Below, piece after piece: positions 18,522 through 61,806 of a DNA stretch of 64,000 nucleotides. The translations under genes were made by a program, and so were the position numbers. Each line of letters begins with the position of its first letter. The stretch's first letter is position 1. Origin of the DNA: an uncultured cyanobacterium (lineage in GTDB: Bacteria > Cyanobacteriota > Cyanobacteriia > Cyanobacteriales > CAWUOF01). The notes below the pieces were generated by a model. It did not search any database, was not told the DNA's origin, and worked only from the letters and a program-made list of their open reading frames with translations. The DNA lies in assembly GCA_963744145.1 (NCBI GenBank), contig CAVUSO010000001.1, positions 7,200,001 to 7,264,000 of the forward strand, read 5' to 3'.

Positions 18522-18563
18522 TTTTATTCTCCATCTAGGTGTCTCGTAATATCATACCTTCAT

Positions 18564-20144: not shown

Positions 20145-20180
20145 GAAAATCTACTCATTTTATGAAGCAAACAGATCAAC

Positions 20181-20598: not shown

Positions 20599-20810
20599 TA
20601 TGATTGCTAGCAGGATGATGCAGTTTTAAATTATTGCGATCGCACGGAAATAATTAAGCTTGATCAAGCTCTAGTACCCTAGATGATTAAGACGATCGCG
20701 ATCGCCAAATTCCAACTTGATTTGAAGAGGGAAATAAATTTGGGAAAAAAGGAGTAATAAATGGTAACATTGCCCAAAAAAATTATCACCGAGAAGCAGT
20801 AGCAGAAAAC

Positions 20811-39423: not shown

Positions 39424-40032
39424 ATGATCGCTCACCCCCAACCCCAACTCATGACACCCCAGGAATACCTGGACTGGGAATCACAACAACCCGTTAAGTA
39501 TGAATACATGAATGGGCAAGTCTTTGTCATGACCGGAGGAACCCTCCCCCACAACTCCATTGCTTTGAATCTCGCTTCTGCGCTCAAAAATCACCTGCGC
39601 GGTAAGGGGTGTAAAGTCTTCATGGCAGATGCCAAAGTTGGCGTTTCACGAAATGGTCCCTTTCACTATCCCGATGTTATGGTCACTTGTGACAGTCGCG
39701 ATCAAACGGCTCGTCAGGTTGTCTATTATCCTTGCCTGATTGTAGAAGTCTTGTCACCCGGAACACAGGAGATTGACCAGGGCAAAAAATTTAGGAATTA
39801 TCGCCGCATTGATACCTTACAGGAATATGTGCTGATTGAAGCAGAAACGATGAATGTTGATTGTTACCGACTCAATGAGATAGGGAAATGGGAACTGACT
39901 GCCTATTCCCTAGATGAACCTAATGCTAAGGTCGAAAATCTAGAAGTTTATTTAACCAGCGTTGATTTCCATTGTCCTATTTCTTTGCTCTACGAAGATG
40001 TTGTTTTTCCTCAAGATAATCCGGAGGAATAA
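39424..40032 (+). CDS. Uma2 family endonuclease-like protein
   Basis: EYMNGQV, YPDVMV, LIVEVLSP, LQEYVLI. Confidence 0.9.
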   Translation: MIAHPQPQLMTPQEYLDWESQQPVKYEYMNGQVFVMTGGTLPHNSIALNLASALKNHLRGKGCKVFMADAKVGVSRNGPFHYPDVMVTCDSRDQTARQVVYYPCLIVEVLSPGTQEIDQGKKFRNYRRIDTLQEYVLIEAETMNVDCYRLNEIGKWELTAYSLDEPNAKVENLEVYLTSVDFHCPISLLYEDVVFPQDNPEE

Positions 40033-40723
40033 AATTACCACTACCCACTTTCCATAATTGTTCTAAGTTTAAATCAGCAGCAATTTTTGCTAGTTTGGCT
40101 AAGTCAGTAGGGTCATCTAAATAAGGTAAAATGCCTAATATTGGTGTTTGGGTAAGAGATGCAATTAAATTCGGTGGACTCCAATCAGCAATTTCTGCTT
40201 TTGTTCTTGGTTGAACACAATTTAGAATTATTCCTTTAAGTTGAATATTTTTTTGTTTTGCTAAAGCAACATTGGCAACAGCTTGGGAGATTGCACCTAA
40301 TCTTATTGGTACTATTAATACTGTTGGTAATCGCCAATCTCTGGCTAAATCTGCGACGGTTAACTCGTTAGTAATTGGTGATCCCAATCCTCCCAAAGTT
40401 TCTACAAACAACCAATCTAAGCGATCGCGTAATCCAGTAAAAGTCTGCCAAATTTTCGCTAAATCTATCTCTTTTCCTTCTCGTTGAGCAGCGATGGGTG
40501 GTGCTAGTGGGGCTGAAAAATATTCAGGATTTATTTCACTGACAGATTGGGGTAAAGAAAATAATCTGAGGTAGAGTTCGCGATCGCCAATTCCGGTTTG
40601 AATTGGTTTCATTATCCCAAATGTCAGATGGGGATAATATTTTTGCCAGTATGCAGCTAGAGCAGTTGTCAAAACTGTTTTTCCTGTATCTGTATCGGTT
40701 CCGGTAATGATTAGTGCTTTCAA
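39977..40723 (-). CDS. bioD: Dethiobiotin synthase
   Basis: TGTDTDTGKT, KPIQTG, PLAPPIAA, VETLGGLGSP. Confidence 0.95.
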   Translation of the reverse strand: MKALIITGTDTDTGKTVLTTALAAYWQKYYPHLTFGIMKPIQTGIGDRELYLRLFSLPQSVSEINPEYFSAPLAPPIAAQREGKEIDLAKIWQTFTGLRDRLDWLFVETLGGLGSPITNELTVADLARDWRLPTVLIVPIRLGAISQAVANVALAKQKNIQLKGIILNCVQPRTKAEIADWSPPNLIASLTQTPILGILPYLDDPTDLAKLAKIAADLNLEQLWKVGSGNFIPPDYLEEKQHLRRAKK

Positions 40724-40798
40724 AGGTTTATTTTTTCAAGAATCGAGTTATTGCTAGGAGTCTTTGCCATCAACATACCTCAAAGACTCCTAACCAAA

Positions 40799-42710
40799 TC
40801 AAGGGATTTTTGGTGCAGGTATAGTTGGGATGGGAGTGAGTGTGGGAGGTTTAGTGGGAGGTGTAGTTGGGATGGGAGTGAGTGTGGGAGGTGTGGTGGG
40901 AGGTGTGGTTGGGATGGGAGTCGTGGGAGGTGTGGTTGGGATGGGAGTCGTGGGAGGTGTGGTTGGGATGGGAGGTGTAGTTGGGATGGGAGTCGTTGGA
41001 GGTGTAGTTGGGATGGGAGGTGTGGTTGGGATGGGAGTTGTTGGAGGTGTAGTTGGGATTGGGGTTGGTTTTTTCGTTGGGTTGGGTTCTGGGGTTGGGT
41101 TGGGTTCTGGGGTTGGGTTGGGTTCTGGGGTTGGATTGGGTTCTGGGGTTGGGTTGGGTTCTGGGGTTGGGATTGGTGGTGGAAGGGGTTCAGGTTGAGG
41201 AGGATTGTTCAGCGTCACACCAAGAGTGAAATTTGTCTCTTTCTGAGAGATTAAATCAATTAGATAATTGCCATTTTGATCTATTTGACCTTGCCAAAGA
41301 TCAAGATTAGAAGCTTCTTTGATAATTTCACCATTAGGATAACGAATATTAAAAGTAGCTGCTCCCCTAATAATTTCTACTTTTAAGATTTGTCCTTTTT
41401 GAGCAACGATTTGATAACGTTTGATTTCCTGGGGGCTTGTCCGATCCTTCGCTTCTACATATACCTGACCAGGTGGAAAAGCGAGTTTTTCTACAATAAA
41501 TTGACTCGGAGATGAGGTCGGTGGAGTGATTGGAGATGGTGATGGAGTCTGAGTCGGGGAAACTGTCGGAGTTGGAGTTGTTTGAGCTGTTTGACGATTG
41601 AGAATTGAACTGATAATTGCCCAAGTACCGATCCCCACCAAGAGAACAACGGAAACCATCACTGCAATCATAGCTCCAGTGTTATTCCAGAAAGAGTTTT
41701 GATTGGGATCAGGAATAACGGGATCAGGTTGATGCGGACGACGGTTATGGGGAGCGATCGGTTGGGGACGACGTTCCGACTGCTACAGTTTGGACTTGAG
41801 AAATATTAGCTCCTGGAAGTTGAGGATTGGGGGGTTGAGCGATCGGTTGTTGGGGATAATTAGATCCGGGATTAGGTAAAGTCTGAAGAGCTTGCGCGAC
41901 TTCACTGACTGATTGATAGCGATCGCTAGGTCGGTAACTCAACATCCGATTTAAAATATTAGCAAATCCAGGGCTGACGCTGGTCCACCGTTGCCAATTC
42001 CAAGTGAGTTGAGTATCATCAAATAGCTCTTGTGGTTCGCGACTGGTGAGGAGAACTATCGATGTAACTGCTAAAGAATAAAGATCACTACTGGGATAAG
42101 CTCTCCCAGTTTGGATTTGTTCCGTGGGTGCATAACCAGCTTTACCTACTGTAGTAGAGGATTCGGGCTGATCAGGAGCTTGAATTCGGGTCGCGATTTC
42201 TTTGACCACACCAAAATCAATCAGCACAGGGAGGCGATCGCTAGTGCGAAGGATAATGTTATCTGGGGAAATATCCCGATGAATAATATTTTTAGCGTGA
42301 ATATGCGCTAATACGGGCAATAATTGCCGCAATAATTGTAAAACTTCTAGTTCTGTAAAACTCTGACCTAAATTTTTTCGTTCTTGCATTAGGGCCAAAT
42401 AGCTTGGACCTTCTACATAGTCTTGGATTAAAAAAAAACGTCCATCTTGCTGAAAGGTAGCACGAAATTGGGGAATTTGGGGATGTTGGATTTGATAGAG
42501 GATCGCTGCTTCCCGTTGAAATAGTTCCTGTGCTTTTTCTAAACTGTAAGCACTTGTTTGAGCTGGAAAGAACTCTTTAATAGCACAGCGTTCATTAAAG
42601 CGTCCCCGATCTTCCGCTAGATAAGTACGACCGAATCCCCCTTGACCCAAAATATTGAGGAGGTGATAGCGGTTTTGGAGGATGGTGCCAATGGGAATCG
42701 GTGGTTGCAT
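40799..42710 (-). pseudogene. Membrane Ser/Thr protein kinase (Pkn2-type) split by a +1 frameshift (real or sequencing error)
   Basis: GQGGFG, AIKE, HRDISPDN, DFG, APTE; removing one base at 41774-41775 joins the kinase to the TM + extracellular + PT-repeat part. Confidence 0.85.
40815..41190 (-). repeat. Coding tandem repeats (PEPNPT)n and (PTTPIPTTP)n
   Basis: 18-bp and 27-bp tandem units. Confidence 0.9.
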
Positions 42711-47608: not shown

Positions 47609-48436
47609 CTAGATACAGAACCAAATACCAAACTTTTGGATTGTGAATTTTGAGCGTTTGACAGTGATACCAGGAACCCAGCAGGGATCACCAAATTGTT
47701 CTATATGCTGTCCTGCTTGGTGAGGTGATTTCCATTCTCGTCCCACCAAAGGTTCCATCTCACCAGTTGCTGAAAAGTTTGTTGATGAGGTATGGGCTAA
47801 TAGTCGTTCTGTCTGGATCACAAATCTATCTTCACTATTGATCAAGACTGCTTGTCCATCAAATAAATCTTTGTTTTTATATGGTGCATCATCAACCAAT
47901 TCGACCATACCCCACCCATAACTACGCTCACCACCCAGGTGTAATCTGCGGATTGCTTGTTTCCAAGCAAGTTGACAGTTATTCTTCTCAAACACATAAC
48001 CAACTAGATAGACTTGTTCACCTGTGTCCAACCTGCGGGGTGAGAGAAATTCTACTTCATGCAGTAACCCCTCAGCAGCAGTTTGCTGGGGATAAAGCAG
48101 AGCTGTACTAACATAGCTGCTCAGAAAACGGTGACGAAAATTGTTATTCCACGACCAATTGATCTGATAGTCTCCATCTTTGTTAATGGCTGGATAAAAG
48201 TAGGTGTATGCTAAGGAATCATGAACTTTTTCTCCAATTTTCTGATAATCTGCTGAATTGATTGCTGGTTTATGTTCTTTCTCACACTCATCGCGTGTCA
48301 ATCTCATGGTGAGTGCGCCCCAAAACATTCGTCCTGTGATATATGGGCGAGTCCGTTGCAAGTTGCCCACTTTGCCACAGCCAATATGGATAGGCGATCG
48401 CAGCTTAAATATAACTCGATAAACCTGCCAGATCAC
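47609..48436 (-). CDS. cmr3: Type III-C RAMP, Cmr3/Cas5-group
   Basis: LRSPIHIG, GRMFWGALT, LHEVEF, LGGERSYGWG G-loop; last gene of the III-C order. Confidence 0.7.
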   Translation of the reverse strand: MIWQVYRVIFKLRSPIHIGCGKVGNLQRTRPYITGRMFWGALTMRLTRDECEKEHKPAINSADYQKIGEKVHDSLAYTYFYPAINKDGDYQINWSWNNNFRHRFLSSYVSTALLYPQQTAAEGLLHEVEFLSPRRLDTGEQVYLVGYVFEKNNCQLAWKQAIRRLHLGGERSYGWGMVELVDDAPYKNKDLFDGQAVLINSEDRFVIQTERLLAHTSSTNFSATGEMEPLVGREWKSPHQAGQHIEQFGDPCWVPGITVKRSKFTIQKFGIWFCI

Positions 48437-48864
48437 TAGGCTTCCTCCTGATCTGGTTGATGATGATTTAATTCTTCGTTTTGCCGCGCTTTTGCTCCAT
48501 AACGAGCGTAGATTAACATTTGTTCGAGCGTTTCTTTTGTAAGTAACAGTCGTTCTAAATTAACTGTTACCTTCTCAGTAATGTAGGAAAGTACATCGTC
48601 AGCCTTATTAATGTCTGGTTTGCCCCAATTAAATCCCAAAGCATTGAGGAGTTCAAACATTTCTTGAGCGATCGCCCTACCATTTTCCTTCTCTTTTGCT
48701 AGCAAGTAAAGAAAACAGGCATAGACACCATTTTCTTGTAATACCCCTAATGTTTTAGTCACACTATTATCTATATCACTAGCCTTTTTGTCGTGAGTCT
48801 TCTTAATAATTTCTTGTGCGTATTTTGCGGCTAGTCGCTCAAGATTAGTAACTACACTACTCAC
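48436..48864 (-). CDS. cmr5: Type III small subunit Cmr5 (Cas11)
   Basis: GTG start overlapping the cmr4 stop; helical protein, LGVLQENGVYACFLYL, YARYGAKA. Confidence 0.75.
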   Translation of the reverse strand: MSSVVTNLERLAAKYAQEIIKKTHDKKASDIDNSVTKTLGVLQENGVYACFLYLLAKEKENGRAIAQEMFELLNALGFNWGKPDINKADDVLSYITEKVTVNLERLLLTKETLEQMLIYARYGAKARQNEELNHHQPDQEEA

Positions 48865-49828
48865 CGTCTTGCTCCTTACCAAAAGTTTCTTTCCAGGGTT
48901 TTCCGACGATCGCCATGCGCCCAAAACCGCGTGTACCCATACCGCCAACTCCTAGCCATTCAATCATGCGAAAGCCAGATTTCACTACATCTAGTGAATT
49001 ATTCCAGGAATCACCTCCTGGTAGTGGATTATTTTGTCCGGTTTTGTTCAGTGTTTTTTTAGGAAAATTCTGACGATAATCATCAAGTACAACTTCTGCG
49101 GTGAGAAATGCAGCACGGGGAATAGCTTCGTAGGTAAACAGAGCCCCTTCTGCTGCTGCACCAGTCTCCGGATCGATCGCTACCGATGTACGCACTTCTA
49201 GATTACTATTCACTACTTGGCTAAAAAGTGCATCTTGTACCAAAACAATTTTATTTCTAATCGCTTGCCAACGTTCTTGATTTTCCCAATTCTGGGGTGC
49301 TATCACGGTTACTGTGTTTTCAATCCGAAGCATTAACCATCCTAAGTTGAGCGGATCTTTACGATCCCAAGTCAACACAACTGAGTCATTACTCCAATTT
49401 AATGATGGATTTATGGTAAAACCTGCATCTTTTAGCCGTTCCATCGTACTGACCCATACAGGTCCTACCATTGAATTTACAGGAAAAAGTAGCAGATGGG
49501 CATCGAATATGTTAACTACACCCGAATAGGTAGTTGAATCATCTTTGTTAGCATTCTGGGACTTTTTGAGATAGCCAAAGGTATAACAGACTGGATTTTG
49601 ATCGGGGTCTTCAATTGTGTCATGGGCTTGTCCTGCTGCTCCTGGTGTTTCATATAATTGAGCTGCGTAGAATCGAGCTGCACCATGCAAGCTAGTTCCA
49701 GGAATTTTAGGAATTTTGGTTCCTGGTTCTCGCACAATACTATTATCTACCCGTCCCAAACGATAGCCTCCAGTGCCAATATGTACCGGGTCAAGCGTCA
49801 TAAACAGATAGCGTTGCCGCTTATACAT
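48857..49828 (-). CDS. cmr4: Type III backbone RAMP Cmr4 (Cas7)
   Basis: DPVHIGTG, VDNSIVRE (catalytic Asp position), IPGTSLHG, GALFTYEAIP, GVGGMGTRGFG. Confidence 0.92.
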   Translation of the reverse strand: MYKRQRYLFMTLDPVHIGTGGYRLGRVDNSIVREPGTKIPKIPGTSLHGAARFYAAQLYETPGAAGQAHDTIEDPDQNPVCYTFGYLKKSQNANKDDSTTYSGVVNIFDAHLLLFPVNSMVGPVWVSTMERLKDAGFTINPSLNWSNDSVVLTWDRKDPLNLGWLMLRIENTVTVIAPQNWENQERWQAIRNKIVLVQDALFSQVVNSNLEVRTSVAIDPETGAAAEGALFTYEAIPRAAFLTAEVVLDDYRQNFPKKTLNKTGQNNPLPGGDSWNNSLDVVKSGFRMIEWLGVGGMGTRGFGRMAIVGKPWKETFGKEQDGE

Positions 49829-49832
49829 TATT

Positions 49833-52604
49833 TTACTGCTCCTTTAAAATTTCAATATGCAGTTCTGCCAAGTCAGCTAATTCACCTCTTACTCCAGCCT
49901 CAATCATCTTCTGACGTTGTTCTGAGGAAATTGATGACCATAAATGGCTCTTAGGCCAATTTGCATTCGCTAGGGTGTCGGTAACAAACTGTTGAAATAT
50001 TTGATCTTGTGTTGACTGATTTCCCTCGTCTTGCCCATACCAAGTTTCGCGGGTTGCTTCAATGGTATAGATGATCTGATGACATTGGGAGGTCTCCAGG
50101 TTTTTCAGAATATTCCAGATTTGGTCTAGACGATCTAAGTCTTCAAGGTAAAATGGGCGAGTGTGACCTGGACGGCGACCATTTTCGTCATAGTAAATAT
50201 CAAAGCGACGGGCGCTGCTATCGAGAAATTCAAAATCGAAGGTGGATGGTGTGAAATAAATGCGATCGCCCTCTTGCAAATCATCAGTATGAACTAACCA
50301 ACAAGGTGTTGTTTCACCAGGTCGCTGACTTTTGATTGCTCTTTTACGTCCACTCACCTTGCTATCATCACCATGAGTTTCTAGAAAAACGTAGGGATAC
50401 CAAACATCATCTGTTGTGCCATCTCCCATTTTGGCGGGAATATGCCAAGTAATAGTATGGTTATCTTGGATCAGATTTAGAGTAATGGTTTCTTCAAATT
50501 GTTGAGTACCATTTGCTAGCTCTTTCTTATTTTTTGGCAATTCTCCTCTAGATATTGACTGTACCTGCCAGTCTTTTTGATGATTAGGCGATTTGTAACT
50601 TAACATCTGCCGCCCAGCATCCAGAGCAGATCGAAGGGGAGTGCGACGATGGAAATACACTATACCTAAGTGTAGAGGGAGACGATTACGAACTTTTCCC
50701 ATCTCTCGTTCATATTTCGTTTGAATTGTTTTGATTACTTCAAGAGATTTGTCCGCTGGGACAAGAGCCATGAAAGTACGTGGTTCAGCCAGAATCTGAA
50801 TAATAGGGCTATACTCTGTTGAATCAAATTGCACGTTGCTGATGGTCAAACTACCGCGCAATTGATTAGGTTTTCCATATCCAGTAGGTTCTTCTATAAA
50901 TACCTGCTGATTAAGCAATTTTTGATCAACAAATGTGACCGCTAATTCACTATTTGAATATTGCTGATACTCTGCACCTAATTGTTTAGCAACATAGCAA
51001 AGATTATCTGTTGTGATTAATTTTTCGTTATAATATAAAATACTAAGCTTGGTTGTTCCGAATACCAAGTCATAATTTCCAAGATCAGCTAACGGCTTGT
51101 CAAAATTATAAAAGTCAATCGTAAAATTGAGGCGACCTTTTACCATTGGTAGTTGTGCATCTACAAATGACTCTTGCCAAAACCTTTGAGTAGTGCGCCA
51201 GACACGCTGTATCCGTGCAAAGGATGGTTCTTTACTAAAGGAATAATTTTTGTTTGTGTTATTGCTAGGATTGCATACAACAATAAGTGTTTTGATCATG
51301 TCACCATTGAGCCAGTCATTCAGATTAAATCTACCGACAACTAACGCGAGATGACCATTTTTATCAGCCACTTCGTCTATCCAGATAGTATTTCTGGAAA
51401 ATGTATTATCGTGATCTTTACTCTGCAAGTCTTTTAACCATGCTTGTGCCCGTTTACCTCGTCGTTTCAGACAAACATGACAAACATTCTGTAAGAACGC
51501 TTCAAGTTTTTGCTCTTTATTATCCTCTCCCCAGCCCTGTGGACGCATACCACAGACTGTGCATATATCAGTCACTTTTCCCTGCCACCAACGCTTTGAA
51601 TAATCTTCAAAAGGTGTAATTGGTGGCAAAGACAGTGCTAGAGCTTTGTGGATGACAATGCCTTTTTCATGAGCTGCTGTAATATGAATTTGAGGTTTTA
51701 ACTCTCCGCTTAACTCACTTCTCCACCCAGTATTTAAGATTAGGTTTTCAAGCAGGTTACGCAATTGGCTACCCTCAATATCATCGCCCTCCAACTCTGG
51801 CATTAAAAAAGCACTACCATTTTCATCTCGGTAGACTTCGTTGCCCAATGGATAGGTTTCTTCTAAAAGTGTATGGACAAGGTTTAACGATGCTTGTAAC
51901 GATGTTTGCCGACCCAGTAAATCACCAATTGTCAGTGAGCGTTCTAAAAAACTTATGCCATCAAAACTAATAGATAGAATTCGCCACTTCAAATCATGTT
52001 CAATAACTTTATTTTCTATAATATATCGAGCAGCGATTGCTTTCCAGAATGCGGCTGTAGCTGCTCCCCATTCCCAAAGTCTGACTTCATTCAGAGGTCG
52101 TCTTGTATCTCCTACAGCATGGTTGAATACTTGTTCTAATTCTTTGAGAAAACTATTACGCTGATTGATATTGTTGACTGCTTTCAGCAGTTCTGATGAT
52201 TTTTCGTTGAGTAAAGTCTCAAACCCAAATACAGACGCAATTAAACAAGTTGGCTTTCCTAGTCCTCGCTCTTGTGGCTGATCTACTTGTGGCTTATCTA
52301 TATGGGCAATATTATGGCAAATGCCTAACAGTTTAATACGCCAGTCTGAAGAATGTTTTGCTTTAGAAGGATCTTTACCTTCTTCTATTAACTGCTTAAG
52401 TGAAGAATTCTCAGTATATGTAAGCGATGTGAGAATGTCTTGTGGTTTAAAGCTATCCAAGACAGATGAAATATCAGCAGGATTAAATTGCGCCCCTAAT
52501 TTTTTCCACTGACCAATACACTTTTGCCAATCATGTAAAAACGCTGCTACTTCTGTTAAGAGCAGATCATCACTTTTATTAGCTAAATCTGTCAAGTCAT
52601 ACAT
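49833..52604 (-). CDS. cas10: Type III-C large subunit Cas10 (Csx11) with degenerate Palm domain
   Basis: N-terminal LHDWQK, GDTRRPLNEV, GNEVYRDENG, CTVC..CHVC, PSFARIQRVW, AEPRTF; no GGDD. Confidence 0.88.
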   Translation of the reverse strand: MYDLTDLANKSDDLLLTEVAAFLHDWQKCIGQWKKLGAQFNPADISSVLDSFKPQDILTSLTYTENSSLKQLIEEGKDPSKAKHSSDWRIKLLGICHNIAHIDKPQVDQPQERGLGKPTCLIASVFGFETLLNEKSSELLKAVNNINQRNSFLKELEQVFNHAVGDTRRPLNEVRLWEWGAATAAFWKAIAARYIIENKVIEHDLKWRILSISFDGISFLERSLTIGDLLGRQTSLQASLNLVHTLLEETYPLGNEVYRDENGSAFLMPELEGDDIEGSQLRNLLENLILNTGWRSELSGELKPQIHITAAHEKGIVIHKALALSLPPITPFEDYSKRWWQGKVTDICTVCGMRPQGWGEDNKEQKLEAFLQNVCHVCLKRRGKRAQAWLKDLQSKDHDNTFSRNTIWIDEVADKNGHLALVVGRFNLNDWLNGDMIKTLIVVCNPSNNTNKNYSFSKEPSFARIQRVWRTTQRFWQESFVDAQLPMVKGRLNFTIDFYNFDKPLADLGNYDLVFGTTKLSILYYNEKLITTDNLCYVAKQLGAEYQQYSNSELAVTFVDQKLLNQQVFIEEPTGYGKPNQLRGSLTISNVQFDSTEYSPIIQILAEPRTFMALVPADKSLEVIKTIQTKYEREMGKVRNRLPLHLGIVYFHRRTPLRSALDAGRQMLSYKSPNHQKDWQVQSISRGELPKNKKELANGTQQFEETITLNLIQDNHTITWHIPAKMGDGTTDDVWYPYVFLETHGDDSKVSGRKRAIKSQRPGETTPCWLVHTDDLQEGDRIYFTPSTFDFEFLDSSARRFDIYYDENGRRPGHTRPFYLEDLDRLDQIWNILKNLETSQCHQIIYTIEATRETWYGQDEGNQSTQDQIFQQFVTDTLANANWPKSHLWSSISSEQRQKMIEAGVRGELADLAELHIEILKEQ

Positions 52605-53787
52605 GGTTTATTTTCGTTCCTTTCGGTTCTCTACACAATCCTTCTCCTATCTGCTTTGCCCGATCGCACAACTCATTCAAGCTAGCAAAAGATACTTTAG
52701 TTATAGATAATGTTGGTGGTGATGGTTCCGGTTCGGGTGCTGATTCTAATGTGACTGTTTGTTTTAATGCTTTACCTTCCCGTTCCCACCATTTTTTGGC
52801 TTTTTCATAACGCTGCTTTTCTTTCTTGCTAGATTTTTTATTTAGATATTCTGCTTCAGACTTAAGATTACCATCAGAATTTTGCAAGTCCGGATGTAGT
52901 TTTCCGGGTGCGATTAGATAGGATGGTAGCTCAGGTTCAGTAGATATTACTTTCGGTTCAGGTGGCTGTAAATCTGGTAGATCTGTTGCGATCGCTAATT
53001 CTCCTATACCATTAACTTCTGCAATCCCAAAACCACTACTTGTTTTTGCTCCAAAGCCATAAACCGTCAACATTTTCTCGACTCCCTCCGCAACCATCTG
53101 TAAGTCTCTAGCAACCTCAGTCAGTTTTACTAAACCAAAGGGAACGTATAACAAGACAAATTCTCCAATTGCATCTACGGGAACACACTCAATCAAAATT
53201 GGATTTTTACCAGTGCCCTTTTTGCGATCGTGCGGGTTGATCACCTCTAATCCAATCTGATCAAAGAACGTTGGATAAAAATAAAGACAACCTTGTTCAA
53301 TTTTTTTATCATCTATTTGAATATCTTTCTTAGTTCCAAAGAGATGCTCAATTCTAATTTGCCTTGCTACAAATTCTTTCTTATAGATGCAATCATTCCT
53401 TATACTTTCATTCAGGTTATCCGACCATTCAGATAACTGTTGTATCATTGCTATACGCAATACCCCTTTCCAGCTCGTTGAGGCAACCATTGGGTTTTGA
53501 AAAATCTTTTCCTTACGAACCGGATGATCAAGTAGGTGAAAGGAGCGATCGTCTTTGCTCAAATAAGGCTTAGACAACTTTAAGGAAAACCGCAGCATAA
53601 AACTAAACGATGGTAAATAGTTAAGATCGGAAAGTTTGGGGAGAAAACCAAACTGGTTCAAATTAATAGCAGAGTCAACTTTCTCATAACGAATTTGCCA
53701 TTCATTCAGATGCTTGGCTTTGTCTTTTGTAGCGATCGCTTGACGCAACCAAGAGTCGTGAGTTGCTGAATAATCGTATTGCATCAT
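52597..53787 (-). CDS. cmr6: Type III-C RAMP Cmr6
   Basis: KPYLSKDD, STSWKGVLR, EVINPHDR, PILIECVP, GFGAKTSSGFG. Confidence 0.85.
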   Translation of the reverse strand: MMQYDYSATHDSWLRQAIATKDKAKHLNEWQIRYEKVDSAINLNQFGFLPKLSDLNYLPSFSFMLRFSLKLSKPYLSKDDRSFHLLDHPVRKEKIFQNPMVASTSWKGVLRIAMIQQLSEWSDNLNESIRNDCIYKKEFVARQIRIEHLFGTKKDIQIDDKKIEQGCLYFYPTFFDQIGLEVINPHDRKKGTGKNPILIECVPVDAIGEFVLLYVPFGLVKLTEVARDLQMVAEGVEKMLTVYGFGAKTSSGFGIAEVNGIGELAIATDLPDLQPPEPKVISTEPELPSYLIAPGKLHPDLQNSDGNLKSEAEYLNKKSSKKEKQRYEKAKKWWEREGKALKQTVTLESAPEPEPSPPTLSITKVSFASLNELCDRAKQIGEGLCREPKGTKINHV

Positions 53788-54509
53788 TCACTCCCTACAA
53801 ATTCAAATGCTGCAAGTAAAGGCTGAAAAATTTCACAAATATCAGCCTCGTCAGCATTCGCCATTATTTTTTCGGCAAATACTGGAGGAGAAGTGTGTAA
53901 TTTCGTGATTGCCGCATAGATCCGCACATAATCTTTTGCTTCGACTAAAGTAATACCATTTCTAGCCAGCAAATCCGGCATTTCATCAGTAATCTTGGCA
54001 GCCAAATTGTTAGGTGTAATCCGAATTTGTTCCGCCAATCTATTAACAGTATTCTCTCTTAACGCAAGCTCCAAAACATAATCATCAATGGTGGACTTAA
54101 TAAAGCTGTTATTCCATCGCCTAATTGCAATATGTAAAGCTAAACGAAAATTCAGGTCTGGGAGCGACAATGTATAAACATTAGATTGAGTTGAATGTGT
54201 GGTTAACTGTGGCATAGTAATTTGAATATCAATTCTATTTAACTCTCTTTGCAAAGCACCAGAAATACTTTGGCAAATCCTTGCTTCAGTCTCATCTGTA
54301 TGACTATCCAAATCACGTAAAATTACACAGTCAACTGGCTCTTTTTCTTCGAGTAGGGGTCTGATGCGATTCATCACTGTATTGTTCAATTTATCTTTGC
54401 CTTCAGCAGGTATATAAGTTGCGTAGTCCTTGTGATAACCAAGAAGCGTAAACATTTTCTTACATACCTTCTCTTCTGTAGAGCCTTCACCAAAGACCAA
54501 AATAGTCAT
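53784..54509 (-). CDS. Putative TOPRIM-fold nuclease partner of the ATPase, 241 aa
   Basis: ILVFGEGSTEE (EG motif), VILRDLD (DxD), STIDDY; ATG 2 nt after the ATPase stop with AAGGAAG RBS. Confidence 0.6.
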   Translation of the reverse strand: MTILVFGEGSTEEKVCKKMFTLLGYHKDYATYIPAEGKDKLNNTVMNRIRPLLEEKEPVDCVILRDLDSHTDETEARICQSISGALQRELNRIDIQITMPQLTTHSTQSNVYTLSLPDLNFRLALHIAIRRWNNSFIKSTIDDYVLELALRENTVNRLAEQIRITPNNLAAKITDEMPDLLARNGITLVEAKDYVRIYAAITKLHTSPPVFAEKIMANADEADICEIFQPLLAAFEFVGSE

Positions 54510-54511
54510 AG

Positions 54512-55798
54512 TTACTCTTCCTTTAGATGAAACTGCAATGGCGGCACAAAATCCTTCCAAGCCCGTGGGTCAAGACCAGAATCTAACCAGGTTACTAATG
54601 TGTCTTGATCAAACCAGGATGACTTTAATTGTCCATTGGATAAACTCAAGTGAAAGATTAGGGTGTCTTCTGAATGAAGATTTTTGTTTCGCAACATCTG
54701 GGTTATGTAGGCGACAAACTCAAGGTTATGGGTGGAAATAAAAACTTGGATCGGTTTGTCGCGAATAATTTTGACCACTTCCTCAATAAGTCTCCCTAGT
54801 GTTCTTGGATTTTGGAATGATTCTGGCTCTTCCCAGATCAACAAACCGGGTGCATCGGAAGTAACTCTTTCTGCCATCACTACTAACGGAGTTAATAATT
54901 TAAAAGCAGCCCTTGCACCATCACCAAAAGCATCAATAGACAAAGCAGGTCGATCTTTTGGAGCAATCCATCCTTGTAATTTTTGCTCATCTCCTCGCAG
55001 AGGTACAAACTGGACTATACAATCAGAACCGATTTCGTAAATCGCATCAAAATGCTGGGCAATACGCTGTGTCCACCCGGACACAGTGCTAATAGTGCGA
55101 CGATAAAACTCGCTCGGTACATAATCTTTCACCATTGATGTGTCGCAAAATAGAGTGTGTTGAGCTACAGGGGGTTTCCCCTCAATCATCCAGCTTGCAC
55201 TTCCCTTCGTGTAATAGGTTAAACCTGGATGCCAGCAAAACACTGTTCGATTTGGGTAAGCTAGATCAACAGATGCACTCATCAACTCCTTAACTAAATC
55301 AGCTCTTTTGATAAATTCATCCTTCTCCCTTTCGTCTAGTGCTTCTGGTATGAGAAGAGAATCTAAGGCAAATAGAGCAATACTGTCTGGTTCTGCGATC
55401 GAAAATCTGAGGTTATTCACATCATCTTGTAGTTCAAATTCTTGCAGAAGCTTAGGAGCAGATCGATCAGCTACTGAAACATTGAAACTACGACCGTCTA
55501 CTCTTCCTAAAGTAAATGATTCAACAGTGTCGCTATGTTTATTAGCAACTAGATTGAGCGGATTATAACCTAATATATCTGGCTCTGAAAGCAGTACATC
55601 ATAGGTTATGCTTTCTTTGTCTTTCTGGGAAATCAAACCTACTGCTGTCTGATTAATCGTACCTGCCAGATATAAAGCTTCCATTACCGCCGATTTTCCC
55701 GCATTGTTAGGACCAACAAACACATTGAATTTAGTCAAATTACGAATTTGACCGGACTCAATACCGCGAAATCCTTTAATAGTAATGCTGCTAATCAT
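54512..55798 (-). CDS. ABC-type AAA ATPase (AAA_15/AAA_21-like)
   Basis: ITIKGFRGI, Walker A GPNNAGKS, signature-like FGDG, Walker B LIWEEPE, H-loop STH. Confidence 0.88.
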   Translation of the reverse strand: MISSITIKGFRGIESGQIRNLTKFNVFVGPNNAGKSAVMEALYLAGTINQTAVGLISQKDKESITYDVLLSEPDILGYNPLNLVANKHSDTVESFTLGRVDGRSFNVSVADRSAPKLLQEFELQDDVNNLRFSIAEPDSIALFALDSLLIPEALDEREKDEFIKRADLVKELMSASVDLAYPNRTVFCWHPGLTYYTKGSASWMIEGKPPVAQHTLFCDTSMVKDYVPSEFYRRTISTVSGWTQRIAQHFDAIYEIGSDCIVQFVPLRGDEQKLQGWIAPKDRPALSIDAFGDGARAAFKLLTPLVVMAERVTSDAPGLLIWEEPESFQNPRTLGRLIEEVVKIIRDKPIQVFISTHNLEFVAYITQMLRNKNLHSEDTLIFHLSLSNGQLKSSWFDQDTLVTWLDSGLDPRAWKDFVPPLQFHLKEE

Positions 55799-57006
55799 AC
55801 TTGCTCTCTTGCCAAGGTAGTTTGTAAAAAAGTCTGAATCTCTGGAATTTTATGAATTGGCCAGGGTGTTTCAGTTGGTAAGAAAATGAGTTTGGCAGTA
55901 CGATAGTCAGTTGCTCTCAATCCAAGAGCTGTCAGCCAATGCTGCGGTTGAGCCAACTGATCTTTAAATACACTAAAAACTTCATCCTTAAACCTTCGCC
56001 CATCATGATCTTGAGGTAAATACATCCAACCCCGAAATTCCCATTGATTAGAATTATCCAGACAATATGCCCAACTAAAGGCAACTTTGCTCCGCACACG
56101 CTCATCCCCGCGTCCAATTGTACCAAATAACCAGTGAGGTAATGCTGGTGATGACCATTGGTGATGAAAGCGAAGGTGATTTTTAAGTGCAGGTGTAATG
56201 GGAACCATACCTTGCTTGGCTAACTGGTCAAGTTCTGTCCAACTATCTCGTCTTGTGCGTAGTTCTTTGATGCCAGGAATATTGTGCCACCAGTTTGAAG
56301 TTGTCGGTGTGAAGCGTAGCTTAAAGAAGGTAAAAGTCCGTAAATCTGGCTGCTCGCTCACGGATTGCTCCCCATATTTTTGCCAAGAGAACGATGATAA
56401 AGCATTTTTAACATGATCATTTTCAAGATCCACATTGATGATCCGAAAAATTCCGTAACCAAGCTGAGGACGCGCCCCCAAACTACCCCATGTTTCTATA
56501 AACCGCAGCAAAGCATGAACTATTGCTAAGATTTTCGGATCTCCTTGAATTGTAATTTTAAGTGTACCTAGCCAGCCCGGATTGATATACCATCCGCGGG
56601 TGCGATCTGGGGGAGTGACTTTTAATGGAACACTGGGTTGCCATACAGGTTGATTTTGCGGCTCATCTACACATACACTTAACCGAAACTGCCGTTTCCA
56701 GCCCGTGGCACCAAAAATCTGGGAAACATCACATAATCCAGACTCACTTAAATACTGACGACGTTCAACTTCATTTTTTTGGCGATATTTCTCAGCACTA
56801 AAAGTCGGCTTTAATCCACTGCGATCGCTAGATGTTGGATCTTTTACCTGTCCTCCTAATCCCCGCACTAACACTTCCATCCACCAACGTAAGCTACCCA
56901 GGATACCAGTTTCATGGATGCGATCTACCTTACCAGTCTCAACACCGCCAGTCCATAAGGGAGTCAATGTGTTGATTTTTACTTCCATTTTTCCCAAGTA
57001 ATACAT
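55795..57006 (-). CDS. cmr1: Type III RAMP Cmr1
   Basis: TLTPLWTGG, GILGSLRWW, IFGATGW, GSLGARPQLGYG; alternative start at 56988. Confidence 0.9.
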   Translation of the reverse strand: MYYLGKMEVKINTLTPLWTGGVETGKVDRIHETGILGSLRWWMEVLVRGLGGQVKDPTSSDRSGLKPTFSAEKYRQKNEVERRQYLSESGLCDVSQIFGATGWKRQFRLSVCVDEPQNQPVWQPSVPLKVTPPDRTRGWYINPGWLGTLKITIQGDPKILAIVHALLRFIETWGSLGARPQLGYGIFRIINVDLENDHVKNALSSFSWQKYGEQSVSEQPDLRTFTFFKLRFTPTTSNWWHNIPGIKELRTRRDSWTELDQLAKQGMVPITPALKNHLRFHHQWSSPALPHWLFGTIGRGDERVRSKVAFSWAYCLDNSNQWEFRGWMYLPQDHDGRRFKDEVFSVFKDQLAQPQHWLTALGLRATDYRTAKLIFLPTETPWPIHKIPEIQTFLQTTLAREQV

Positions 57007-57217: not shown

Positions 57218-57419
57218 CATTACTAGCAGCAGTTCCATCTTTAGTCGGCTCTACTGCGATCGCGACCTGATGCAGCAGCAATTTTAGCCTTATACTAGAT
57301 GGTGAGGACTTGCTGAATTGAGCTAGTGAGAGATTCTTAGACCATTTGATCACTCGTTAGAACAGCATATTTAGATGATCTGTCAAATTTTGTCAGTCAA
57401 ACTTGGGGTAAGCAAAAAT

Positions 57420-58826
57420 ATGCCTCGTTATATTAAATATCTTGAAGCTGAAGGAGTTCTTGGGCGCTTTGATATTTATCAAGAGTTTCAAGAAGGTGTA
57501 AACGTACTTTTTGGGAAAAATGGGACAGGAAAAACGACCCTACTTCATATATTAGCTAATTTACTTAATGGTGATTACAAGCGATTTGCTTTTCTTGAGT
57601 TTAGCAAAATAAAAGTTCAACTTGATGATGAAACAAATATTGTTATTTCCAAGAATACAAAGGAAAAAGATATTTACATTAATGTCACTAGCGATGGTGA
57701 TTATCTTACAGAAAATCTTTCGACTAAAGAGATTTTAGAGCAGGAGCCATCAAGAGAAGAAATATTTTCTTCTTCTGCTAAAATAAGCTCTTTTTGGCAG
57801 CAAATTTTCAGCCGAAAAAGAAATGAAGAAGACATAACCCCTATTCTACCAGTAGCTTACTTTCCTGCTTTTAGAACAATGATCGAGGCGTGGGCATCAT
57901 CAGTACAATATACAGAAAATCCTGAAGATACACAGGTTTTAAGTACAAATTTTGCACGTAAATTGTTTGGTTATTTTGTGCCGAATCTTAATTATCCTTC
58001 TCTGATTGAAATAGAACACAAATTAACTATAGAGATTAAAGAAGCGTTATTTAAAATAGCAGTTGCTGACCGAGAAAATTTTAGCAATTTAGTTCCAAGC
58101 ATCTTTCAAGTTTTGTCTAAAAATTTTCATTCATTAGAAAATACTGTTTCATTAGAAGAAGAATATGAAGAATATGAGAATATGCTTGAGGAAATAAACT
58201 CCTTAGTTAGAAAACTTGAAGACTATCCTCTCAAAGAAACTCCTACAATTACGCAAATTCGTACTTCTGTTGCAGATTTTCAAGTCGATGATCAATATAA
58301 AAGAATTGCCCATAAGGTACTGAAAATCTACCGGGAAGCTCTTGAAAAAGTGATTACAGTTCAAGAAGATTCTTTCAGAGGAATTGAGAAATATCTAAAT
58401 TCTGTAAACTCCTTTTTAGAAGGGAAAAAGATTGAGAGTTTGCCAGAAAATACATTAGAACGTAAATTACCAGTAGGAATAAAATTTGACGAAGGAACTC
58501 CAAAAACGATTTCTGGGATTAGTCATGCTTTATCTTCTGGGGAACGCGAAATTGTCACTTTGATTTATGCGGCAACTTATATGAGTAAACAGCAGATAGT
58601 TCTAATCGATGAACCAGAGATTTCTCTCCATGTGGTTTGGCAAAGACATCTGCTCCAAAAGATGTCAGAACAGCTTGGAGATAGACAAATTATAGTTTGC
58701 ACTCACTCTCCTGTAATTGGAGCGGATTATGAAGAGAGAGTAATTATTTTTGAGCCAAAGATTACCTGCTCATCTAAAACTACGATAGAGCATCAGTTGG
58801 TTGATGAAGATAATGAGGTATTCTAA
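57420..58826 (+). CDS. ABC-type ATPase (AAA_21-like; PARIS AriA-like)
   Basis: GKNGTGKT, FPAFR, LSSGE, VLIDEPEISLH, CTHSP; TAATG overlap with the next gene. Confidence 0.88.
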   Translation: MPRYIKYLEAEGVLGRFDIYQEFQEGVNVLFGKNGTGKTTLLHILANLLNGDYKRFAFLEFSKIKVQLDDETNIVISKNTKEKDIYINVTSDGDYLTENLSTKEILEQEPSREEIFSSSAKISSFWQQIFSRKRNEEDITPILPVAYFPAFRTMIEAWASSVQYTENPEDTQVLSTNFARKLFGYFVPNLNYPSLIEIEHKLTIEIKEALFKIAVADRENFSNLVPSIFQVLSKNFHSLENTVSLEEEYEEYENMLEEINSLVRKLEDYPLKETPTITQIRTSVADFQVDDQYKRIAHKVLKIYREALEKVITVQEDSFRGIEKYLNSVNSFLEGKKIESLPENTLERKLPVGIKFDEGTPKTISGISHALSSGEREIVTLIYAATYMSKQQIVLIDEPEISLHVVWQRHLLQKMSEQLGDRQIIVCTHSPVIGADYEERVIIFEPKITCSSKTTIEHQLVDEDNEVF

Positions 58827-59167
58827 TGGCTTACGATCCAGCATCTTACCGTCTATATTTAATGAATAGTATTAATAGCGGCAAAAATAAGCATATTCTT
58901 GTTGAAGGTAAAGATGATAAATATTTAATTGAAAAATTATGTCAGGATTTTTTACTTAAAACTAATCAACATACCACTAATAAAATCCTTGTAGATTCTG
59001 CTGAAAATCTTATTAAGGGAGATGAATCAATTCCATTTACCAACAATAGAGATAAAGTTGAATTTATAGCTAAGAGTGTTAATGGGAAACAATATGCTGA
59101 TGGTTTTATCGGTTTTGTTGATCGGGAGTTACATAAATTTGAATGGGACTATGATTGTATTTCAGAG

Positions 59168-61074
59168 CAGCAATTCTCATTTTGAAAAAAATCAGAGAAA
59201 ATTCTCTTATTTAAATAGAGAACTTGTGTCGAAGCATGATTTTTTGACAGATAATTATCATCCGACGCTGAAGATAGACAAGTTTTCAGAAATTTGTCCA
59301 TGAAAAATCGATTTCAACTGATACATCCAGATGAAATTCTCACCCATTTTTTAGGTTTTTTTTGATAAAAAAGTACGGGCGTATTGCAATACGCCCCTAC
59401 CCTTCCTCTTTCAATATATTGATATTTTTCAACTAGAATTTAGTTTTTTTAATGGGACATTCTCGGTGAGAATAAATGAGAATAAATCTGACCAATTTTT
59501 GAACCATAAATATTTTAATAAGGTCCGAATATCCTTAAAGAAAGTAGTAGGGGCGTATGGCAATACGCCCGTACTAATAGGTCACGAACTTTTTGATAGA
59601 TGTAATTAACTAAATCCAAAACAGTATGAAATAAAAAAGCTAGTAAATTCAAAGACAATAATAACTCGCACAAATGATTTTCACCATGACCAAAGTTATG
59701 CTCTAAATTATAACCGTGATTTTTAAGAACGTTATTACTTTCATTCTCAACTTTCCATCTGCTGCGCCCAGCTTTGACAATTTCTTCAATATTATTTTCA
59801 GTGATTTTATGATTAGTGATCCAATTATTTTGGTAGATAATTTTCTGTGTTTCCTCATTAATAACAGTCACTTCGTACCAATTAACTTCGAGACTTGATT
59901 CTTCATCTTTTAAGGGAACTCTATTAGCATAGCGATAACGATACAGGAGATTTTTTCGCCCATCCCATTGGGGCTTTTTAATGGTAGTAACTTCTCCACT
60001 TTTTTCTAAAAACTCTAGCCATTCATATAAAGTTTTATGCGAAGTTTCTCGACCAACAAAAATAAAATTATATCCTTGTTTTAGAGCTAATTCACAAATA
60101 GGTTGGTGGGCATATAAGTCATCCCCTAAAAGGGTTACAGGATAACCATATTTATTTTGATGATTCTTATTCAACCATCTTTTAACCGCCGCATTTTCAC
60201 AATCTTGTTTTTGATGACCATCCAGGTTTTTAATAAATTCTGGCGCTAAACTAATCACTTGGTTTTGATTAGGAGAAACTACAATAGGTGTAACACAGCT
60301 ATGAAAATAAGTGGTAGTTCCATTGCGATGATTACGACGGTTACAATGAGGACAATTTATTTTCTGTGATGAAAAATATTCGGTGCCATCTAAAGCCATT
60401 AAAATTTCTTCATCTAAGTAGAGAAACTTTTTCAAAACTCCGTTTTTATTTAACCATTCATAGACTTCTTGAAAAGCCATAAATATAGTAGCTGCTGGCA
60501 CCGGATCTAACAAATTTCTGATTTGATTATCACAGGGAATTTTCTTAATTGAAAATAAACTTTCTGCGTTATCTTTTCCTTTATTGCTTTTCATTAACCG
60601 CTGATGGTCTAAAAAAGATGCTGACTGAGTAAAAAAGATTGAAAATGCAGCCATCACTGCATCTTCTACCTGGTATTTCGTATTATTTCCAGGTTTCCTT
60701 TCATCAGGTAAGTCATGTAATTGTTGACGTAAAAATTCGATTAATTCAGGGATTTCTAGGGTCGCTGCTTTTTGAGCCATGTTTGAGTAATTTAACGTGC
60801 TGTCAGATTTTTAACTCACCGATTATACCTCATCTGATCACAATTATAAATTTTTATTTTCCTTGAATTCCCTATTCTAAAAACCGAACTATCAAACTGG
60901 ATTTCCCTCGTTCGTTGTCAGGCCATCCTCGATTCTATTGAGTATTTATACTTAGATATTGACCCAATTGTTTTTTAGCCATTGCCTCTGCCTGAAAAAC
61001 TGGTTATTTTGTACTATATTTTCAATTCCCAAATCGGGATTAATACTCTATTTTTTTTAAAATGAGAATTGCTG
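59168..61074 (-). mobile_element. ISNCY-like insertion sequence, 1907 bp, complete copy
   Basis: Same IRs as 8721-10627; 9-bp TSD ATTTCAGAG (59159-59167, 61075-61083). Confidence 0.95.
59515..60780 (-). CDS. DDE transposase (ISNCY-like)
   Basis: Identical 421-aa protein to 9015-10280. Confidence 0.9.
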   Translation of the reverse strand: MAQKAATLEIPELIEFLRQQLHDLPDERKPGNNTKYQVEDAVMAAFSIFFTQSASFLDHQRLMKSNKGKDNAESLFSIKKIPCDNQIRNLLDPVPAATIFMAFQEVYEWLNKNGVLKKFLYLDEEILMALDGTEYFSSQKINCPHCNRRNHRNGTTTYFHSCVTPIVVSPNQNQVISLAPEFIKNLDGHQKQDCENAAVKRWLNKNHQNKYGYPVTLLGDDLYAHQPICELALKQGYNFIFVGRETSHKTLYEWLEFLEKSGEVTTIKKPQWDGRKNLLYRYRYANRVPLKDEESSLEVNWYEVTVINEETQKIIYQNNWITNHKITENNIEEIVKAGRSRWKVENESNNVLKNHGYNLEHNFGHGENHLCELLLSLNLLAFLFHTVLDLVNYIYQKVRDLLVRAYCHTPLLLSLRIFGPY

Positions 61075-61806
61075 ATTTCAGAGCTTCAGGATATACTTAA
61101 CTCTCATGATGTAATCCAGCGCCTTATTTTATCAAGAGGTCACTCTATAGAAAACTATATTTTTGATTTTGCTATATTTTGTGAAGTCTTAGAGTATCTT
61201 TCAACAACAGTATATACAAGTCAATCTATAGCTTTGTTTAAAAAAACTTTTGAATCCACCCTTCGCCTTGCTTGTGCAATTGGGTTAGCAGCAACAAAGG
61301 CAAAAGTTCTATCCAAAGTTAATTCAACCATCGACTATAAGCTCCTAGATATCATTTCCTCCACAGACGTAGGTTTTAAATTTGATGACTGGGTACAAAA
61401 ATTAGTTTCTAGGGGGATATCCAATGTTCAAGCACAAGACTTAAAATTGCATTACGTTATTTATAAAGAACAGGTTACTAAGGCTTCAATTTCTCTAATC
61501 AGATGGATATGTCATGGTCATATTGGTTATGACTTTTTGAAAGCTTTGTATGAGAGATGTATAATTGAACTATGTCCCAATACACAAGACAAAGCTAAAG
61601 AATTAAGCGGAATAACCTGGCTTAAAAAGGAACAACTGTTTTATTCCTTCATTAATTCTTGGGTCAAAAAGTCCTTGGAAGAGCAGTGCGACTATCCTAA
61701 AGCTATCTTTGAATTGTTAGGGATAATATGATAGATATTCATCTTTTCTTCTTGCCAATCCATTTGGTAATTTGTAAAGTCAAACTGACGTTAACTTGAA
61801 AAAATC

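Follow-up and report, generated by a model that had tools for sequence, protein, structure and literature searches.

The operon and its gene order

Here, we describe a type III-C CRISPR effector operon with two additional genes, which is located in a 64,000-nt stretch of DNA from an uncultured cyanobacterium (assembly GCA_963744145.1, contig CAVUSO010000001.1, positions 7,200,001 to 7,264,000), hereafter termed the window. Based on the listing of open reading frames (ORFs), positions 47609-57006 hold eight tightly packed genes, all on the minus strand and in the same direction (Table 1). Six of them encode the effector subunits in the III-C order cmr1, cmr6, cas10, cmr4, cmr5 and cmr3, and the two extra genes, lying between cmr1 and cmr6, encode an ATP-binding cassette (ABC) ATPase and a small protein whose predicted fold is TOPRIM-like. 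To judge from its sequence, the locus is a III-C (Csx11) Cmr operon with a three-gene 5' cassette, composed of a Cmr1 variant, the ABC ATPase and a putative TOPRIM-like nuclease.

The order cmr1-ATPase-TOPRIM-cmr6-cas10-cmr4-cmr5-cmr3 had been proposed in an earlier sequence-only reading of the same DNA, together with two ATGA overlaps, a 2-nt gap between the two extra genes, and a Cas10 that has an N-terminal HD-like motif but no GGDD. The profile searches bear out the gene order, and the junctions are as proposed when the DNA is read directly. That is, the stop of cmr1 and the start of the ATPase gene overlap in ATGA (55798-55795), the TAA of the ATPase gene is followed by 'ct' and then by the ATG of the small gene, and the stop of the small gene overlaps the start of cmr6 by 4 nt, again in ATGA (53787-53784). 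From the ORF coordinates, no junction in the operon has a gap of more than 4 nt. The genes of the cassette are coupled in translation to the operon. The true start of cmr5 is probably further downstream than that of its longest ORF, in which the Cmr5 profile match starts at residue 34. Asp28 of Cmr4 is present within 'GRVD28NS' and is presumably the catalytic Asp, as taken from the Cmr4/Csm3 motifs. A promoter and terminator scan of the operon gave fewer sites than shuffled sequence did.

The Cas10 subunit is also as the sequence-only reading had described it. It belongs to the Csx11 family that marks subtype III-C, scoring 455.6 bits against TIGR02682 (cut-off 248.95, E 4.2e-136) and 1.2e-198 against PADLOC Cas10c. 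The N-terminus retains an HD dyad in 'FLHDWQKC', GGDD occurs nowhere in the translation, in line with the inactivated cyclase of III-C, and the GGDD position reads 'ILAEP' in the window protein and in 12/12 aligned Csx11 proteins. Among the nine Csx11 proteins that come from operons with the extra pair and include the N-terminus, the dyad is HM or HN in four, and therefore these four complexes contain no other predicted effector nuclease. Loss of HD in all pair-bearing loci was considered as well and rejected, since 5/9 keep it. According to the passages available from PMC11229360, III-C lacks cyclase sites and known effectors, and the HD nuclease is kept in only half of its members.

In the accessible part of PMC12669027, most III-C loci are described as devoid of arrays, and their own arrays and cas6 are usually missing. 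No CRISPR array was found within the 64-kb window, and therefore the CRISPR RNAs (crRNAs) would come from elsewhere in the genome; no Rfam family matches within the window either. An array is present in one of the ten related III-C loci checked (L008; L numbers denote the loci compared here). There, cas4-cas1-cas2 and the array adjoin the III-C operon at 17403-20704, which is the sole case among the ten, and the five repeats of this array, each ~37 nt long, end in ATTGAAAC.

The ATPase and the small protein

The ATPase shows a Walker A motif (GPNNAGKS, with G34 and K35), a signature-like GDGAR at residues 292-296 and a Walker B motif (WEEPE) at residues 322-326, all of which are kept in 23/23 aligned relatives. 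It thus shows the ABC ATPase domain that is expected of the OLD family, complete with both Walker motifs and the signature. Its best PADLOC models are AbiLi (1.3e-23) and then AriA (1.6e-18); the AriA models (1.6e-18 and 4.6e-18) align with two short terminal stretches of the protein and score below AbiLi. The predicted structure, with a mean predicted local distance difference test score (pLDDT) of 86.8, matches the SMC head, Rad50, PtuA and the retron Eco8 OLD protein in Foldseek (E 1e-10 to 3e-8, template modelling (TM) scores 0.32-0.58). Searched against the PDB, the ATPase profile finds its best match in the OLD nuclease of Thermus, TsOLD (6p74, 2.7e-4), confined to the Walker A region. 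In two loci from metagenome-assembled genomes (MAGs), L002 (5434-6673) and L004 (8982-10023), either a frameshift or an assembly error divides the ATPase gene between two overlapping ORFs.

The small protein has only weak sequence matches, namely DUF3226 (E 0.0074) and PADLOC HEC-01B (1.9e-5), and the former, at 16.5 bits compared with the gathering cut-off of 27, leaves it outside DUF3226 (PF11536). Neither PF20469 (OLD-like_TOPRIM) nor PF01751 matches it in Pfam, and its profile finds nothing in the PDB. Its distant relatives give sub-threshold matches to OLD-like_TOPRIM, Toprim and DUF3226, of which that to PF20469 reaches E 0.0014 in one distant relative only. Relatives are few, with 197 representatives among 1.84 billion at E <= 0.001 and 107 clusters at 90% identity. 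Across 43 homologues (38-65% identity) the alignment contains 16 invariant residues, among them E8, G9, D66, D68, H126, D142, D143 and K172, and the motifs are kept in 22/23 family-1 sequences. A Glu and a DxD make up the TOPRIM pattern.

The model of the small protein is confident (pLDDT 95.8). At E <= 0.001, the only PDB entries that Foldseek returns are PH0156 (2p62), which is the best fold match (E 1.6e-4, TM 0.57) and which we take to represent DUF3226, and the Xanthomonas OLD entries 6njx and 6njw. The catalytic C-terminal regions of OLD proteins (6njx, 6njw and 6nk8) match with E 7e-4 to 5e-3 and TM 0.38-0.51, including E 2e-3 to 5e-3 for Burkholderia OLD (6nk8). DUF3226 is present in 17-18% of the members among the Atlas neighbours of the small protein. 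Based on the modelled fold and the motifs, the small protein is called TOPRIM-like, of the OLD type, in an unnamed family, and it is predicted to be a metal-dependent nuclease. The earlier proposal of a TOPRIM protein of 241 aa is supported by the modelled fold and by the invariant Glu and DxD, and by no significant sequence match.

A search for the small protein fused within longer proteins found none, which is weak evidence, and the later search of representatives gave one such protein, P0243. In this protein of 607 aa, an AAA_21/AAA_15 ATPase is fused to the small-protein domain (residues 374-602), as in the single-chain OLD proteins. It is the only fused relative among the 150 matches listed, and it supports the view that the ATPase and the small protein act as one unit. 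The small protein has no tblastn match in the plasmid and phage collections, and no Foldseek match at E <= 0.001 among viral structures.

Recurrence of the pair in Cmr operons and elsewhere

To see how the pair is distributed, one genome per species was scanned and the ORFs were searched with the window proteins, which gave 24 loci encoding a relative of the small protein. The pair adjoins Cmr genes in 14 of the 24 loci and lies between cmr1 and cmr6 in 13 of them, that is, in ten complete operons and three cut contigs. The same eight-gene order is complete in L001, L002, L003, L006, L007, L008, L010, L012, L014 and L024, and the cut contigs L004, L009 and L016 are consistent with it. In the remaining Cmr-linked locus, L005, cmr1 has the pair immediately upstream and is followed by a divergent second ATPase (3429-4661). 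The 14 loci belong to Cyanobacteriota, Chloroflexota, Bacteroidota (Saprospiraceae) and Thermodesulfobacteriota, plus one unplaced MAG. Of 12 related loci containing both genes, nine show the 4-nt overlap between the small gene and cmr6. Recurrence of the insertion in this one slot in other genomes is therefore more than chance.

The ten loci without Cmr genes in the flanks examined are L013, L015, L018-L023 and the short L011 and L017. The standalone pairs of Acidobacteriota/Blastocatellia occupy two conserved housekeeping neighbourhoods without cas genes. In one, the pair is directly downstream of hisS, which encodes histidyl-tRNA synthetase, and in the same direction (L015, L020, L023). In the other, uvrA is upstream (L019, L022) and larC is downstream (L011, L013, L018, L022). 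Thus, of the expectation that the pair would recur in other III-C loci instead of being standalone, the first part stands with 14/24 loci, and the second is offset by the standalone homologues in 10/24.

The pair is not a general feature of III-C. At E <= 1e-10, at least 513 clusters belong to the Csx11 family, compared with the 107 clusters of the small protein, part of which are standalone, and therefore the pair would be present in only a minority of III-C loci. As a rough proxy based on the lengths of the longest contigs, which is not a context analysis, three genome-sized contigs are common to the matches listed for Csx11 and for the small protein, and four are only in the Csx11 matches listed. 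The length of Cmr1 or Cmr6 alone was tried as a marker of pair-bearing loci and rejected, for the lengths vary widely.

Some related operons carry further insertions. In L014 (Chloroflexus sp. MS-G), two pairs lie in tandem between cmr1 and cmr6 (6636-8674), and the first small protein is a divergent homologue (hhalign probability 98.5%). Other inserted genes in related III-C operons are mostly at the cmr6|csx11 junction (Table 1), apparently a hot spot where small toxin-antitoxin-like modules insert. They include HEPN/HepT and MNT nucleotidyltransferase genes, and a DDE transposase in L024; in L003, XisI and Uma2 lie between the small gene and cmr6.

Sister operons without the pair and the variant Cmr1

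Searching plasmids with Csx11 by tblastn gave a decayed Thermus locus and two nearly identical loci on cyanobacterial plasmids, L025 and L026, which hold a plain six-gene III-C operon with nothing between cmr1 and cmr6. Their identity to the window proteins is 55% for Cmr6, 63-64% for Csx11, 68% for Cmr4, 62-66% for Cmr5 and 53-54% for Cmr3. For Cmr1, it is 35%, and every pair-bearing Cmr1 is 41-66% identical to that of the window. The alignments locate a conserved insertion in the pair-bearing Cmr1 proteins, at about residues 232-285 of the window protein, that is missing from the Cmr1 of L025/L026. Seven of its residues, W239, W240, G245, P269, P272, N276 and R279, are invariant in 13/13 pair-bearing Cmr1 proteins.

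The trees, which come from 'quick' searches, place the sister operons as follows. In those of Cmr6, Cmr4 and Cmr3, L025/L026 are nested in the cyanobacterial pair-bearing clade as the sister of L003, with Shimodaira-Hasegawa-like approximate likelihood ratio (SH-aLRT) supports of 93-99, and the approximately unbiased (AU) test on Cmr4 rejects their exclusion from this clade (p 0.006). In the Cmr1 tree, the branch of L025/L026 measures 3.24 changes per site, and the path from L003 to L025 is 4.71, as against 0.40-0.77 in the trees of Cmr6, Cmr4 and Cmr3. Taken together with a Cmr1 tree that follows that of the ATPase and not those of Cmr4, Cmr3 or Csx11, the insertion in Cmr1 and the divergence confined to Cmr1 indicate that the variant cmr1, the ATPase gene and the nuclease gene behave as one cassette.

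A comparison of the trees across the pair-bearing loci points to a mosaic history. The tree of the ATPase is deeply split (branch 1.02), with the window, L001, L003, L005, L008, L012, L024 and the standalone clade on one side, and with L006, L009, L010, L014, L016, L007 and two second-copy ATPases on the other. The standalone clade is sister to the III-C group of the window (100/100 for the union). A branch of the Cmr1 tree (99) likewise separates the second group from the rest. Cmr4 (p 7.5e-77), Cmr3 (3e-5) and Csx11 (2e-4) reject a tree in which this group stays together, and for Cmr6 the result is marginal (0.071). Therefore, Cmr1 shares the history of the ATPase and not that of the 3' half of the operon.

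Comparison with known systems

The plain III-C systems, with their Csx11 or MTH326-like Cmr module, have the same Csx11 family, lost GGDD, subunit order and absence of an adjacent array as the window operon, which differs from them by the two genes between cmr1 and cmr6 and by the Cmr1 variant with its insertion.

The pair resembles PARIS in that an ABC ATPase of the AAA_15/AAA_21 kind is followed by a separate small protein with a TOPRIM-type Glu and DxD. However, the small protein of the window has no AriB or DUF4435 match at E <= 0.01 in Pfam and PADLOC, and the pair is found in a CRISPR operon or in a chromosomal housekeeping setting, not in a phage satellite. In the OLD family (P2 Old, TsOLD, BpOLD/XccOLD, GajA and the retron Eco8 effector), an ABC ATPase is combined with a TOPRIM nuclease, as is predicted for the pair. 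However, OLD proteins of classes 1-3 are one polypeptide and those of the window are the products of two genes with a 2-nt gap; in addition, the TM-scores are modest (0.38-0.51) and PF20469 is unmatched by the window protein. OLD and GajA act on DNA, and AriB acts on tRNA/RNA. Accordingly, the PARIS- or OLD-like architecture seen in the sequence-only reading can be retained as regards the ABC ATPase and the TOPRIM-like fold and motifs, but it does not extend to membership of PARIS, for which AriB or DUF4435 is lacking.

AbiL and HEC-01 provide the best PADLOC models, AbiLi for the ATPase and HEC-01B for the small protein, and both matches are partial; AbiL differs in that no AbiLii match is present in the window pair. 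In Craspase, gRAMP with the bound Csx29 protease, an accessory enzyme bound to the complex is switched on by target RNA without cyclic oligoadenylate (cOA). This type III-E system is a functional analogue in logic only, for Csx29 is a protease that is unrelated to the ATPase-nuclease. In the passages of PMC11464382, the PARIS ATPase holds the nuclease until a trigger frees it, and our working model for the window pair is borrowed from there. HEC-01 is a label without a mechanism, for no text describing it was found, the available part of PMC9252829 included.

An ABC ATPase and TOPRIM pair in III-C is undescribed in the full-text literature searched, and figures, supplements and subscription papers may mention it. 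The available III-C passages mention no such extra genes (PMC6546367, 10.1101/270033, PMC11229360, PMC12669027), and the comparison also covered parts of PMC11464382, PMC10568477, 10.1101/2024.10.26.620412 and PMC9252829. The 'III-C specific' accessory cluster C3a152 in the consulted part of PMC6546367 was considered as a prior description and rejected, being a 143-aa RRM-like protein. Within this scope, the earlier remark that the arrangement was not recognised as a described one still holds.

Neighbourhood of the operon

A PARIS-like system lies divergently upstream of cmr1, at 57375-61731 on the plus strand, with a minus-strand ORF inside it (Table 1). Both edges of the insert carry 'TTTCAGAGC' (~59160 and 61076), as target-site duplication would, and the ariB-like gene looks to have been split by an insertion element. 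The neighbouring genes at 57375-59185 were considered as a paralogue of the embedded pair, which was rejected (BLASTP E > 0.1, hhalign 3%); they are PARIS-like.

Elsewhere in the window, a NACHT NTPase domain (PADLOC PDC-S60) and a NACHT C-terminal helical domain 2 are encoded by adjacent minus-strand ORFs (35607-37905), which may represent a STAND NTPase divided between two genes. A strongly G-rich stretch, with a GC skew of 0.318 over 40001-42000, includes tandem repeats of 9/18 nt and lies within a minus-strand ORF of 290 aa that has no Pfam match, and a run of 12-nt tandem repeats is present inside an ORF of 1454 aa (902-5266).

Table 1. Locations of the genes and other features, given as window positions except where a related locus is named
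Feature	Location	Strand	Size, support or remark
cmr1, variant of pair-bearing loci	55795-57006	-	403 aa; TIGR01894 4.1e-16, PADLOC Cmr1 1.1e-23
ABC ATPase, SMC/Rad50/OLD kind	54512-55798	-	428 aa; AAA_15 6e-16, AAA_21 5.7e-15
TOPRIM-like small protein	53784-54509	-	241 aa; ORF 53784-54560, ATG start at 54509
cmr6	52597-53787	-	396 aa; PADLOC 2.5e-71
csx11, Cas10 of subtype III-C	49833-52604	-	923 aa; TIGR02682, PADLOC Cas10c
cmr4, backbone RAMP (repeat-associated mysterious protein)	48857-49828	-	323 aa; TIGR02580 7.4e-31
cmr5, small subunit	48436-48948	-	longest ORF; PADLOC 2.1e-47
cmr3	47609-48436	-	275 aa; PADLOC 3e-88
AriA-like ATPase	57375-58826	+	PADLOC AriA 3.6e-25
N-terminal TOPRIM-like fragment	58826-59185	+	119 aa; apparent 5' part of ariB-like gene
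ORF with weak IS4 transposase likeness	59515-60780	-	421 aa; E 0.0012; in ~1.9 kb low-GC insert
AriB C-terminal part	61069-61731	+	AriB model 1.1e-8, profile positions 65-227
NACHT NTPase domain	36694-37905	-	PADLOC PDC-S60 6.1e-11
NACHT C-terminal helical domain 2	35607-36650	-	
G-rich stretch	40751-41671		
Tandem repeats of 9/18 nt	40823-41197		
Tandem repeats of 12 nt	3618-3901		
Other insertion in III-C operon, L001	12078-13246		
Other insertions in III-C operon, L003	10845-11797, 13050-13840		
Other insertion in III-C operon, L024	11801-13510		
Other insertion in III-C operon, L009	5615-6550		

Interpretation

Then, what could the two extra genes contribute to a III-C operon? We suggest, with a confidence a little short of even, that they provide a nuclease arm docked on Cmr1 and working without cOA. 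The ATPase and the small protein would form an OLD/PARIS-like ATPase-nuclease complex, which would dock on the Cmr complex via the insertion specific to its Cmr1. In published Cmr structures, Cmr1 and Cmr6 cap the 3' end of the crRNA. The binding of target RNA by the crRNA-guided complex may be passed on through contact between proteins and switched by the binding or hydrolysis of ATP, and the relay would license or release the TOPRIM nuclease, which may then cut DNA or tRNA/RNA. A cyclase-dead type III system would thereby gain a cOA-independent effector arm. In favour of it are the conserved slot of the pair between cmr1 and cmr6 and the overlaps kept there, the Cmr1 variant that tracks the pair and carries the insertion, the split shared by the ATPase and Cmr1 trees, the catalytic motifs retained in both proteins and the fused relative P0243. 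The need for such an effector arises because all the Csx11 proteins lack GGDD, the HD dyad is changed in 4/9 and III-C is without known effectors. A fuller scheme, in which the target-RNA signal passes through the specialised Cmr1 to the ABC ATPase and on to the TOPRIM nuclease, and in which the Acidobacteriota pairs are an escaped or ancestral form, is a possibility clearly short of an even chance. The sequence-only reading as a whole is supported in part, and the link with Cmr1 adds strength to it; its suggestion of a cOA-independent effector that is activated by contact with the target-bound Cmr complex, or of a guard, is an inference.

Several points weigh against the docked nuclease arm. 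Concerning the sister operons, the exclusion of L025/L026 from the cyanobacterial pair-bearing clade remains acceptable in the AU tests on Cmr6 (p 0.30) and on Cmr3 (p 0.23), and their Cmr1 attaches beside that clade at only 63% support. Replacement of cmr1 along with the pair and very fast divergence of cmr1 after loss of the pair would both account for this and are indistinguishable here; moreover, the pair-less comparison consists of two nearly identical plasmid loci and is effectively one event. As for the mosaic history, the tested groups were named after the E-values or trees were known, and linkage alone could give the neighbours cmr1 and ATPase a common history. The TOPRIM assignment rests on the fold (TM 0.38-0.57) and the motifs, with no significant sequence match. 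No cas gene is present in the examined flanks of 10/24 pair loci, mostly of Acidobacteriota, and therefore the pair can work without Cmr. HEPN/MNT, XisI, Uma2 and transposase genes are also found inside related III-C operons, so that the pair is not alone in being inserted there. Finally, L002 and L004 have a split ATPase gene, and L024 and L016 have a truncated or divergent small protein; therefore, the pair is dispensable in some lineages, or these are errors of MAG assembly.

Some of these points lead to the main alternative explanation, namely that the pair is an autonomous abortive-infection module of the OLD/PARIS/AbiL type which happens to reside in the operon and to be transcribed with it, with the ATPase sensing a phage cue and the TOPRIM protein acting as the toxin. 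It may even be a back-up or guard that fires on Cmr inhibition and is not triggered by target RNA. The best defence models for the ATPase, AbiLi and AriA, agree with such a module, and so do the standalone pairs and the position of their clade as sister to the III-C ATPase group of the window, which indicates that the pair moves between contexts. The acquisition of small toxin-antitoxin-like genes (HEPN/MNT) by other III-C operons, the defence-rich character of the stretch, with a PARIS-like ariA and an ariB apparently split by an insertion sequence next door, and the close III-C relatives that function, or at least stay intact, without the pair fit it as well. However, a hitch-hiker is unlikely to keep the exact slot and the overlaps on both sides across four phyla, and a specific Cmr1 variant would hardly appear and disappear along with it. 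Neither AriB nor DUF4435 is matched by the small protein, no relative is found in the phage and plasmid collections, the usual carriers of PARIS-like systems, and the standalone copies are in stable housekeeping synteny, not in defence islands. On balance, we regard an autonomous module as rather unlikely.

The pair could also be a biogenesis or turnover factor, in which the TOPRIM protein trims the 3' end of the crRNA or clears the cleaved target and the ATPase drives assembly or product release at the end formed by Cmr1 and Cmr6. A TOPRIM enzyme, RNase M5, matures 5S rRNA and would be the model for such a role. The pair is encoded between cmr1 and cmr6, whose products cap the crRNA 3' end, and Cmr1 co-varies with it. 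III-C loci mostly lack their own array and cas6 (an array in 1/10, and the passages available from PMC12669027), so that borrowed crRNAs might need handling, and in the accessible part of PMC6546367 type III-linked ATPases that drive turnover are speculated upon. However, the close III-C relatives manage without the pair, the standalone pairs without cas neighbours have no crRNA to process, and the matched ATPases of known role (OLD, PtuA, AriA and retron Eco8) are all defence effectors or sensors, which makes this explanation improbable. That the pair is a decaying or neutral insertion, functionless at present, is suggested by the split or truncated copies and by its absence from close relatives, but it is very improbable, considering the intact ORFs in the window, the 16 invariant residues in 43 small proteins, the invariant Walker A/B and signature-like motifs in 23 ATPases, the confident models for both proteins and the conservation of the pair across phyla.

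Significance

The docked, cOA-independent nuclease arm would matter for III-C as a whole. III-C is the branch of type III that has lost the cyclase and that, in the passages available from PMC11229360, has no known effectors, so that its way of protecting the cell is an open question. An ATPase-nuclease cassette with its own Cmr1 variant offers a concrete and testable answer, for which natural controls exist in the sister operons without the cassette and in the free-standing pairs without CRISPR. The cassette would link type III CRISPR with the OLD/PARIS-type ABC-TOPRIM defence families. If the coupling is true, it would constitute a compact RNA-guided nuclease switch and a new output route of CRISPR, protein-coupled and ATP-gated, which would replace cyclic-oligoadenylate signalling.

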